Positions 36,141 through 39,872 of a DNA stretch of 64,000 bases are shown piece by piece. The stretch is from Escherichia coli (GTDB taxonomy: Bacteria; Pseudomonadota; Gammaproteobacteria; Enterobacterales; Enterobacteriaceae). The position numbers were made by a program, and so were the translations under genes. Position 1 is the stretch's first letter; the number at the start of each line of letters is the position of its first letter. The notes under the pieces were generated by a model. That model did not search any database. It saw only the letters and a program-made list of their open reading frames with translations, and was not told the origin of the DNA. The stretch is from NCBI RefSeq assembly GCF_003334305.1, contig NZ_QOWS01000012.1. The stretch is one strand, 5' to 3'.

Positions 36141-36533
36141 ATGAAAAAATTCGCAGCAGTAATCGCAGTAATGGCCCTGTGCAGCGCACCGGTGATGGCA
36201 GCAGAGCAGGGCGGTTTTTCTGGCCCATCGGCAACGCAAAGTCAGGCCGGAGGATTCCAGGGGCCGAACGGCAGCGTAACGACCGTAGAAAGCGCAAAAT
36301 CCCTGCGTGACGACACCTGGGTAACCCTGCGCGGCAATATCGTTGAACGCATCTCTGACGATCTCTACGTGTTTAAAGATGCCAGCGGTACTATCAATGT
36401 TGATATCGACCACAAACGCTGGAACGGTGTGACGGTGACGCCGAAAGATACGGTTGAGATTCAGGGTGAAGTCGATAAAGACTGGAATTCTGTTGAAATT
36501 GACGTCAAACAGATCCGCAAAGTAAATCCGTAA
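36141..36533 (+). CDS. ygiW: BOF/OB-fold periplasmic stress protein
   Basis: 130-aa product beginning MKKFAAVIAVMALCSAPVMA (signal peptide); divergent from qseBC. Confidence 0.85.
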   Translation: MKKFAAVIAVMALCSAPVMAAEQGGFSGPSATQSQAGGFQGPNGSVTTVESAKSLRDDTWVTLRGNIVERISDDLYVFKDASGTINVDIDHKRWNGVTVTPKDTVEIQGEVDKDWNSVEIDVKQIRKVNP

Positions 36534-36585
36534 TTGTTACCGCTCCCGGGACGCGTTCCCGGGAATAATTTCGCAGGGAGGCAAA

Positions 36586-37068
36586 ATGACAAACCTGACA
36601 CTGGATGTAAACATTATCGATTTCCCATCAATCCCTGTGGCGATGTTGCCGCACCGCTGTAGCCCTGAGTTGCTCAACTACAGTGTGGCGAAATTTATCA
36701 TGTGGCGTAAAGAGACGAGGCTTTCTCCTGTTAACCAAAGCCAGACTTTTGGCGTCGCCTGGGACGACCCTGCCACCACCGCACCGGAAGCGTTTCGCTT
36801 TGATATCTGCGGCAGCGTTAGCGAACCGATTCCCGATAATCGTTATGGTGTGAGCAATGGTGAACTTACCGGTGGACGTTATGCCGTGGCCCGCCACGTT
36901 GGCGAGCTGGACGATATTTCACACACGATATGGGGCATTATTCGCCACTGGCTGCCTGCAAGCGGCGAGAAAATGCGTAAAGCACCGATTCTGTTTCACT
37001 ACACCAATCTTGCCGAAGGGGTGACAGAGCAGCGACTGGAAACGGATGTTTATGTGCCGTTGGCGTGA
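36586..37068 (+). CDS. ygiV: GyrI-like small-molecule-binding domain protein
   Basis: 160 aa ORF downstream of ygiW. Confidence 0.8.
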   Translation: MTNLTLDVNIIDFPSIPVAMLPHRCSPELLNYSVAKFIMWRKETRLSPVNQSQTFGVAWDDPATTAPEAFRFDICGSVSEPIPDNRYGVSNGELTGGRYAVARHVGELDDISHTIWGIIRHWLPASGEKMRKAPILFHYTNLAEGVTEQRLETDVYVPLA

Positions 37069-37613
37069 TGGGGAATCTTTACCGGAGTGTGAGCCAAATC
37101 ACTCGCGATAAGTTTGAGCGAACAATGCCACAGGCGTATTGTTGTTGGGCTTATAATTTCTCCGGTAAGGAATACCATGTATACGCGAAATTTATTATCC
37201 GGTGCGCCGTAAGCCGTCTCGGGGGTATCCATGAGCAAGCCGCACTTATGGCAGGAGGCGCGGGGCACTGGTGGAGACACAGCTAAACTGGGCTGAACCG
37301 TATACTTACAGTCGACTACTTTGATGCTTTAGGCTTCCCTGGACTCGCATAACCTCAACTTCTCGAATCGCCCGGAGCGGACCCCCATGCCGAGTGGTGT
37401 GGCATGGGCGCAACCTTGTGCTGCCCTCTATGCCGATCAAGTCTACAGCAAAGAGTTGTATATCAAGGCACATTGATGCCTTTATCGCCGTCGGAGCACG
37501 TCCGGCGGCGCTATTCACGCTGATCTCCTGTGACTCGACGCGGCAGATAATGTAGTATCTCCGGCAATATTGCCCCTTTGAAGGCTGGCGAATAAGTTGA
37601 GGAATCAGAATTA

Positions 37614-39872
37614 ATGAGCGATATGGCAGAGCGCCTTGCGCTACATGAATTTACGGAAAACGCCTACTTAAACTACTCCATGTACGTGATCATGGACCGT
37701 GCGTTGCCGTTTATTGGCGATGGTCTTAAACCTGTTCAGCGCCGCATTGTGTATGCGATGTCTGAACTGGGCCTGAATGCCAGCGCCAAATTTAAAAAAT
37801 CGGCCCGTACCGTCGGTGACGTACTGGGTAAATACCATCCGCACGGCGATAGCGCCTGTTATGAAGCGATGGTCCTGATGGCGCAGCCGTTCTCTTACCG
37901 TTATCCGCTGGTTGATGGTCAGGGGAACTGGGGCGCGCCGGACGATCCGAAATCGTTCGCGGCAATGCGTTACACCGAATCCCGGTTGTCGAAATATTCC
38001 GAGCTGCTATTGAGCGAGCTGGGGCAGGGGACGGCTGACTGGGTGCCAAACTTCGACGGCACTTTGCAGGAGCCGAAAATGCTGCCTGCTCGTCTGCCAA
38101 ACATTTTGCTTAACGGCACCACCGGTATTGCCGTCGGCATGGCGACCGATATTCCACCGCATAACCTGCGTGAAGTAGCTCAGGCGGCAATCGCATTAAT
38201 CGACCAGCCGAAAACCACGCTCGATCAGCTGCTGGATATCGTGCAGGGGCCGGATTATCCGACTGAAGCGGAAATTATCACTTCGCGCGCCGAGATCCGT
38301 AAAATCTACGAGAACGGACGTGGTTCAGTGCGTATGCGCGCGGTGTGGAAGAAAGAAGATGGCGCGGTGGTTATCAGCGCATTACCGCATCAGGTTTCAG
38401 GTGCGCGCGTACTGGAGCAAATTGCTGCGCAAATGCGCAATAAAAAGCTGCCGATGGTTGACGATCTGCGCGATGAATCTGACCACGAGAACCCGACCCG
38501 TCTGGTGATTGTGCCGCGTTCCAACCGCGTGGATATGGATCAGGTGATGAACCACCTCTTCGCTACCACCGATCTGGAAAAGAGCTATCGCATTAACCTC
38601 AATATGATCGGTCTGGATGGTCGTCCGGCGGTGAAAAACCTGCTGGAAATCCTCTCCGAATGGCTGGTGTTCCGTCGCGATACCGTGCGCCGCCGACTGA
38701 ACTATCGTCTGGAGAAAGTCCTCAAGCGCCTGCATATCCTGGAAGGTTTGCTGGTGGCGTTTCTCAACATCGACGAAGTGATTGAGATCATTCGTAACGA
38801 AGATGAACCGAAACCGGCGCTGATGTCGCGGTTTGGCCTTACGGAAACCCAGGCGGAAGCGATCCTCGAACTGAAACTGCGTCATCTTGCCAAACTGGAA
38901 GAGATGAAGATTCGCGGTGAGCAGAGTGAGCTGGAAAAAGAGCGCGACCAGTTGCAGGGCATTTTGGCTTCCGAGCGTAAAATGAATAACCTGCTGAAGA
39001 AAGAACTGCAGGCAGACGCGCAAGCCTACGGTGACGATCGTCGTTCGCCGTTGCAGGAACGCGAAGAAGCGAAAGCGATGAGCGAGCACGACATGCTGCC
39101 GTCTGAACCTGTCACCATTGTGCTGTCGCAGATGGGTTGGGTACGCAGCGCTAAAGGCCATGATATCGACGCGCCGGGCCTGAATTATAAAGCGGGTGAT
39201 AGCTTCAAAGCGGCGGTGAAAGGTAAGAGCAACCAACCGGTAGTGTTTGTTGATTCCACCGGTCGTAGCTATGCCATCGACCCGATTACGCTGCCGTCGG
39301 CGCGTGGTCAGGGCGAGCCGCTCACCGGCAAATTAACGTTGCCGCCTGGGGCGACCGTTGACCATATGCTGATGGAAAGCGACGATCAGAAACTGCTGAT
39401 GGCTTCCGATGCGGGTTACGGTTTCGTCTGCACCTTTAACGATCTGGTGGCGCGTAACCGTGCAGGTAAGGCTTTGATCACCTTACCGGAAAATGCCCAT
39501 GTTATGCCGCCGGTGGTGATTGAAGATGCTTCCGATATGCTGCTGGCAATCACTCAGGCAGGCCGTATGTTGATGTTCCCGGTAAGCGATCTGCCGCAGC
39601 TGTCGAAGGGCAAAGGCAACAAGATTATCAACATTCCATCGGCAGAAGCCGCGCGTGGAGAAGATGGTCTGGCGCAATTGTACGTTCTGCCGCCGCAAAG
39701 CACGCTGACCATTCATGTTGGGAAACGCAAAATTAAACTGCGCCCGGAAGAGTTACAGAAAGTCACTGGCGAACGTGGACGCCGCGGTACGTTGATGCGC
39801 GGTTTGCAGCGTATCGATCGTGTTGAGATCGACTCTCCTCGCCGTGCCAGCAGCGGTGATAGCGAAGAGTAA
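37614..39872 (+). CDS. parC: DNA topoisomerase IV subunit A
   Basis: 752 aa ORF; type IIA topoisomerase subunit A features (active-site region AAMRYTE). Confidence 0.95.

Follow-up and report, generated by a model that had tools for sequence, protein, structure and literature searches.

The interval between ygiV and parC in an Escherichia coli genome lacking mqsRA: very probably a ygiS deletion scar that holds a group II intron fragment

The 545 bp that separate ygiV from parC in the E. coli DNA analyzed here (a stretch of 64 kb, hereafter the window, to whose numbering positions without a locus name refer) are very probably a common, non-functional evolutionary scar. Two unrelated histories would account for them. 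The mqsRA toxin-antitoxin genes would never have been acquired in the lineage of the window, the mqsRA cassette having entered the ygiV-ygiS intergenic region in a lineage that includes K-12; separately, ygiS, the product of which is the periplasmic substrate-binding protein of an ABC transporter, would have been destroyed, with nucleotides 23-1572 of its 1608 (1550 bp) replaced by 242 bp of foreign DNA. The foreign segment would come from a class C group II intron that was already mobile, comprising the 3' end of this intron and 3 nt of its earlier flank. The difference between strains is an ordinary one and largely documented already, it being known from the literature that E. coli strains vary in whether they have mqsRA and ygiS, and nothing supports a new gene or RNA.

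A sequence-only reading of the window had placed the end of ygiV at 37068 and the start of parC at 37614, with 545 bp between them, which the ORF list bears out; the short ORFs that it named in the gap (37050-37280 and 37306-37518 on the minus strand, 37065-37286 on the plus strand) are present as mechanical ORFs. It had also reported mqsR, mqsA, and ygiS as absent, and tblastn with the K-12 MqsR, MqsA, and YgiS proteins gave no match at E <= 0.01 anywhere in the 64-kb window, in a search that did find YgiW, YgiV, and ParC. The contrast drawn with K-12 is real as well, the K-12-type ygiV-parC interval being 2775 bp long and containing mqsR, mqsA, and ygiS. In the E2865 genome, which is identical over the 545 bp, ygiV is annotated and zero NCBI features lie between ygiV and parC; the NCBI pipeline annotation is empty at the gap in the scar genomes looked at. 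Sensitive blastn against K-12-type loci (reference locus L003) divided the interval and its borders into the following features:

36586..37068, plus strand: ygiV CDS, the left border; 160-aa ORF with 98.75% identity to K-12 YgiV
37069..37176, plus strand: ancestral ygiV-ygiS intergenic region; junctions compared directly, contiguous in outgroups
37071-37075, plus strand: empty mqsRA site, GGGAA; K-12-type genomes have the 927-bp mqsRA cassette here
37177..37198, plus strand: first 22 nt of ygiS (ATG + 7 codons), identical to L003 2435-2456
37199..37437, plus strand: decayed group II intron of class C (IIC), its 3'-terminal 239 nt, by maturase and domain V/VI (DV/DVI) homology
37438..37440, plus strand: three orphan bases, CAA, which are not ygiS sequence
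37441..37476, plus strand: last 36 nt of ygiS, collinear from L003 4007, with the TGA stop at 37474-37476
37477..37613, plus strand: normal ygiS-parC intergenic region, 137 nt, with a single difference from K-12-type genomes
37614..39872, plus strand: parC CDS, the right border; 752-aa ORF with 100% identity to K-12 ParC

On the left, the window matches K-12 sequence through the ygiV stop, up to 37070, and 37076-37176 corresponds to K-12 sequence downstream of mqsA, i.e., the ygiS upstream region; the 123 bp at 37076-37198 are 100% identical to L003 2334-2456. The segment 37199-37440 has no counterpart in K-12. On the right, the block 37435-37700, which contains the ygiS-parC intergenic region, shows 98.9% identity to K-12-type genomes, and, with the 137-nt intergenic region unchanged, parC keeps its upstream sequence intact. 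The lengths reconcile: 2775 - (927 - 5) - (1550 - 242) = 545. No intact ygiS ORF of ~535 codons is left, only nt 1-22 and nt 1573-1608 of the 1608. The reported absence of ygiS is therefore correct for the intact gene, but the upstream region and both ends of the gene are still there. The description of the interval as unassigned sequence gives way altogether: its match to the 3' end of a known gene, through the last 36 nt of ygiS, is an outcome that the sequence-only reading had itself named as contrary to it, and each base maps either to the ancestral locus or to a catalogued group II intron fragment, E.c.F12.

The history of the mqsRA site can be followed in related species. A YgiV scan with one genome per species yielded five Escherichia loci; in E. 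albertii, E. whittamii, and another Escherichia lineage (L014), ygiV is followed directly by ygiS and parC, without mqsRA, and window positions 37070-37198 are contiguous at 94-95% identity. In E. coli itself, 3081 of the 5426 complete genomes, O157:H7 and ST131 included, fully match an 81-nt probe that spans the empty mqsRA site; EDL933 and other O157 genomes lack mqsRA and keep ygiS, and the K-12 arrangement is found in 2298 of the 5426. Because outgroup Escherichia have no mqsRA at the site and the same junction recurs in those 3081 genomes, the mqsRA-free state is ancestral. The mqsRA of K-12 is thus a 927-bp insertion replacing 5 nt, and its absence from the window is not a loss. The difference in toxin-antitoxin content that had been read as strain-level thus stands as a difference from K-12, but not as a peculiarity of the strain, the mqsRA-free state being both ancestral and that of the majority. 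A K-12-centred view is thereby corrected: mqsRA is an insertion present in about 42% of complete E. coli genomes. The inserted cassette (L003 1407-2333) comprises the mqsRA promoter, mqsR, mqsA, and the mqsA terminator. Its borders are sharp: it starts 2 nt past the ygiV stop, and its last base is that of the T-run in the mqsA terminator; no direct or inverted repeats were seen by eye at its ends, and the mechanism of insertion is not apparent.

Relative to K-12, all three genes are missing, as they would be if a K-12-like ancestor had lost mqsR, mqsA, and ygiS in a single deletion. Such an event would, however, have had to spare the 123 bp from mqsA to ygiS codon 8, which are intact, so that there are at least two separate differences. 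The mqsRA-free junction is, moreover, contiguous in three outgroup lineages, accompanies an intact ygiS in EDL933 and other O157 genomes, and occurs without the scar in about 1727 genomes (by subtraction, 3081 - 1354). We regard a single deletion as extremely improbable.

The scar itself is widespread. It was found as one collinear piece of 545 bp in 1354 of the 5426 complete E. coli genomes, with 96.7-100% identity among the matches listed, and because so many complete genomes carry it whole, it is a common haplotype and not a product of chance or of assembly. Its junctions are identical wherever sampled, both in the 1354 collinear genomes and in two divergent alleles aligned base by base. 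In sampled scar genomes, at most 123 bp of a 2594-bp mqsRA-ygiS probe were matched anywhere in the genome. On this comparative evidence, the ygiS scar is a derived state, carried by about 25% of complete E. coli genomes, phylogroup B1 among them. A search in distant mode placed the intron piece at the ygiV-parC locus in 1357 E. coli genomes. The 4.8-Mb PLSDB record NZ_OL790696.1, filed as a plasmid, carries the chromosomal ygiV-parC scar at 100% and is evidently a misfiled chromosome.

The foreign segment is identified by its coding and structural features, its left boundary near 37199 being uncertain by about 12 nt. A maturase tail at 37200-37352 comprises the last ~50 codons; an in-frame TAA interrupts it at 37284-37286, before the natural stop at 37350-37352. 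The frame reads LGGIHEQAALMAGGAGHWWRHS, stop, TGLNRILTVDYFDALGFPGLA, stop, and is 49% identical to LtrA, the Cupriavidus maturase, over the last 43 residues of the latter. Domain V follows at 37367-37398 (32 nt, with a CGC triad and a G-U pair), and 2-3 of its pairs are broken in the window copy (two distal-stem mismatches and one basal). Domain VI lies at 37400-37435; its candidate branch point is an unpaired A at 37430, 8 nt before the intron's 3' end. In group II introns generally, domain V is a hairpin of ~32-34 nt that has a catalytic triad and a 2-nt bulge, and the branch-point A of the domain VI that comes next is unpaired and stands 7-8 nt before the 3' end. Both hairpins were recovered by alignment and consensus folding of 9 related copies, so the domain V and VI signature of a group II intron is present, though in a relic and not as an active domain. 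All copies end in ...CTATGCCGAT, and this shared 3' terminus sets the intron end at 37437 (...GCCGAT).

What remains of the intron is confined to this end. Rfam, run on 36400-38000 at E <= 10, gave no match to the ribozyme core D1-D4, which in the full-length relatives (L006, L007, L008, and L011) matches RF02001 and RF01998; left of the relic lies ygiS sequence. The silence of Rfam on domains V and VI says little, no such family being reported for the full-length relatives either (E <= 1). The 54-aa relic peptide has no NCBIfam match, and no reverse transcriptase/maturase was recognized in it, while the proteins of full-length relatives match TIGR04416 at 400 bits. Having no D1-D4, no reverse transcriptase, a stop in the maturase tail, and a broken domain V, the relic is, to judge from its sequence, capable of neither splicing nor movement.

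Among plasmids, the relic is 83-87% identical to unannotated fragments in E. coli and ~79% identical to the 3' ends of ltrA intron genes of Cupriavidus, Azospirillum, Rhizobium, and Sinorhizobium in the plasmid collection; a near-full-length, decayed copy on pHum4b reaches 91% and reads GAA where the window has the in-frame TAA. A phage collection searched with the relic gave zero matches. An IS end, a MITE, or an IS200/IS605 right end had been considered in view of the hairpin and the right boundary shared with plasmids, and was dropped because the matches are ltrA 3' ends. Class C introns have the habit of starting right after stem-loops, and their sites lie after palindromes or intrinsic terminators, usually intergenic and not within coding sequence (PMC3001079). 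The introns of L006, L007, L008, and L011 begin with GTGCG or GTGTGCG right after a stem-loop, which in the Cupriavidus and Sinorhizobium meliloti introns is followed by a T-run. The relic is accordingly assigned to class C (IIC), an assignment that rests on these full-length relatives and on a published table, the relic's own 5' insertion context having been deleted. An RmInt1-like (class D) origin, suggested by the S. meliloti matches, was rejected, since the full-length relatives, the S. meliloti GR4 copy included, follow terminator-like stem-loops and have a CGC triad, and since the published table gives class C.

On the E. coli IncHI plasmid pHum4b (L011, NZ_OR724977.1), a frameshifted copy preceded by a stem-loop occupies ~2406-4216 and is missing from the plasmid's gene table. 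A phage-like plasmid (L006, NZ_LR890336.1), with holin and tail-fiber genes nearby, carries at ~3591-4069 an intron of the same family, apparently without an ORF: it starts with GTGTGCG right after a perfect 10-bp palindrome, shows D1-D4 Rfam matches at 3674-3937 and domains V and VI at ~4001-4069, has no maturase gene between D1-D4 and domain V, and is unannotated, lying between the holin and serine acetyltransferase genes. Two IncF plasmids (L005 4001-4110 and L012 3440-3755) share one intron insertion, which lies ~140-155 bp upstream of sopA and has CGATAAGGTG as its 3' flank in both; the different intron lengths that they keep suggest progressive 5' erosion, and in L012 a 26-aa "group II intron maturase-specific domain-containing protein" is annotated. 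On plasmid pYLMB64a (L004 4001-4131), a fragment of the intron family is cut by IS1 on its left side and adjoins at its 3' end the stop codon of a plasmid-borne bcsC; the same locus has an isrC sRNA match at 1657-1779 (145 bits).

The right junction of the scar bears on how the intron fragment arrived. Seven ygiS alleles from across the genus read GA(T/C) TAT GTC at the position where the window reads GAT CAA GTC, and because all seven have TAT there, CAA is not ygiS sequence. Independent E. coli copies of the intron family have the 3' flanks CAAG, CAAT, CGAT, and CAAA, and the CAA of the window probably represents the start of the 3' flank that the intron had at an earlier site. Taken with the preference of class C introns for palindromes, these two points speak against the intron having homed directly into ygiS at what is now the right junction. 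An intron that retro-inserted in sense near ygiS codon 524, with one later deletion removing its 5' part and most of ygiS, would agree with the shared orientation of relic and ygiS, with the exact intron 3' end preserved beside ygiS sequence, and with the GAT common to the intron end and to the ygiS codon just upstream; it is nevertheless very unlikely, since CAA, and not the TAT of all seven genus alleles, stands between the intron end and the ygiS homology, CAA is the usual 3' flank of the family at other sites, and class C introns go after palindromes in intergenic DNA, not into coding sequence (PMC3001079). A ygiS allele with CAA, of the kind that insertion followed by one deletion would call for, was not present among the seven.

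As the route to the scar we infer, with some preference, illegitimate recombination with intron-bearing mobile DNA, e.g., a plasmid, with a deletion that was either coupled to the recombination or came after it. That a DNA fragment or a 5'-truncated cDNA was captured at a break is a possible but distinctly less probable alternative. The specific case in which a 5'-truncated cDNA of the unspliced intron transcript, with 3 nt of the 3' exon, patched a break in ygiS is unlikely; it would fit three features, namely an intact 3' end with the 5' end gone, 3 nt of donor flank, and possible microhomology at each junction (TAT-AT at the left one, G at the right one), all of which are equally compatible with ordinary illegitimate recombination. 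If true, such a patch would be a bacterial counterpart of endonuclease-independent, deletion-associated retroelement insertion. Intermediates, such as ygiS with a longer insert, were not found, and the order and number of steps are thus those that we infer.

The sequence-only reading had left room for a small protein or sRNA in the gap and had proposed a check of RNA structure. A functional gene of this kind that replaced mqsRA-ygiS might draw on the ORFs of 70-76 codons found on both strands, on the retained ygiS upstream region and ATG, and on the commonness of the haplotype. Yet ORF 37065-37286 on the plus strand is a chimera, in which the region of the ygiV stop and intergenic DNA are joined to a maturase tail taken out of its context, and the stop that closes it is missing from the pHum4b copy, with GAA there and TAA here. 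The two divergent scar alleles differ at 11 of 239 relic sites (4.6%) compared with 0-3.9% in the flanks, a divergence that, qualitatively and for these two alleles, looks neutral; all their differences within the three named ORFs change an amino acid, and the minus-strand ORF 37050-37280 has a stop in one of the two. Domain V has decayed further in the window allele, the other allele keeping ancestral pairs that are lost here. The best Rfam matches in 36400-38000 at E <= 10 were two at chance level (E = 3 and 8.8), far below family thresholds, and 196 of 200 shuffled controls fold better than the relic RNA (z = +1.96). In view of these points, a functional small protein or small RNA in the gap is highly improbable.

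A scan for promoter and terminator consensus gave none above shuffled expectation; the one weak terminator-like hairpin, at 37125-37137, belongs to the ancestral intergenic region. The sequence comparisons thus offer no evidence for a small protein or sRNA in the gap, and its only likely active features are inherited ones: the region upstream of ygiS together with the ygiS start codon, and the intact region upstream of parC. The ygiS ATG opens a relic ORF of 11 codons (37177-37212; MYTRNLLSGAP and a stop), and the surviving upstream region and ATG could give rise to a short relic peptide or a read-through transcript.

Loss of ygiS is not confined to the scar haplotype. In Escherichia sp. MOD1-EC7003 (L013 5481-6062), ygiS residues 155-179, 205-227, and 452-535 are kept, and in Escherichia sp. 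E1V33 (L015 3689-4280), residues 27-86 and 452-535; ygiS was destroyed independently in these two genomes by different internal deletions, with no intron sequence in either. One E. coli locus (L001) has a C-terminally truncated ygiS pseudogene, and in one O121 genome (H131) IS1 has inserted into the mqsRA-ygiS region. The gene looks repeatedly dispensable in Escherichia, and its repeated independent inactivation (the scar, L013, L015, L001, and H131) could conceivably reflect selection against the transporter. A link of MqsR and ygiS to tolerance of the bile salt deoxycholate is the subject of disputed claims (PMC6918082), on which the dispensability of ygiS and its several losses in the genus bear. 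The scar itself has little importance beyond book-keeping; in annotations, the 545 bp need not stay blank but could be given as the remnant of a ygiS pseudogene and a group II intron fragment.

Three known systems can be set beside the interval. With the mqsR-mqsA-ygiS locus of K-12 (b3022-b3020), the window shares ygiW, ygiV, the upstream region and ends of ygiS, the parC upstream region, and parC; K-12 has the 927-bp mqsRA insertion and an intact 1608-nt ygiS, whereas the window has the empty site and a ygiS reduced to 22 + 36 nt. The second is E.c.F12, listed by Leclercq & Cordaux (2012; PMC3522654, Tables S2/S3) as a chromosomal class C fragment of 118 bp, 79% similar to P.s.I1 and common to the B1 strains IAI1, SE11, E24377A, and 55989 as well as to Shigella sonnei, S. 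boydii, and S. flexneri. Its tabulated coordinates in E24377A (NC_009801 3499415-3499532, minus strand) fall between ygiV and parC, where the matching window positions are 37320-37437, so that sequence and locus are both the same. The 118 bp listed there were delimited by nucleotide similarity, whereas the relic extends over ~239 bp once the maturase tail is recognized; the ygiS deletion scar and the 3-nt orphan flank around it are not part of the description given in those tables. As set against the tabulated entry, the fragment is already catalogued, and what is added here is its ~239-nt extent and its setting as filler in a ygiS deletion.

The third comparison is with the class C introns of Cupriavidus pinatubonensis plasmid p1 (ltrA; L007), S. 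meliloti GR4 pRmeGR4d (L008), and pHum4b (L011), to which domains V and VI and the maturase C-terminus of the relic are homologous (79-91% nucleotide and 49% amino acid identity). Like them, the window copy has a domain V with a CGC triad and a G-U pair, and an A left unpaired 8 nt before the 3' end; unlike these introns of ~1.85 kb, it keeps the last ~13%, without D1-D4 and without reverse transcriptase, and it has an in-frame stop, broken domain V pairs, and no preceding palindrome.
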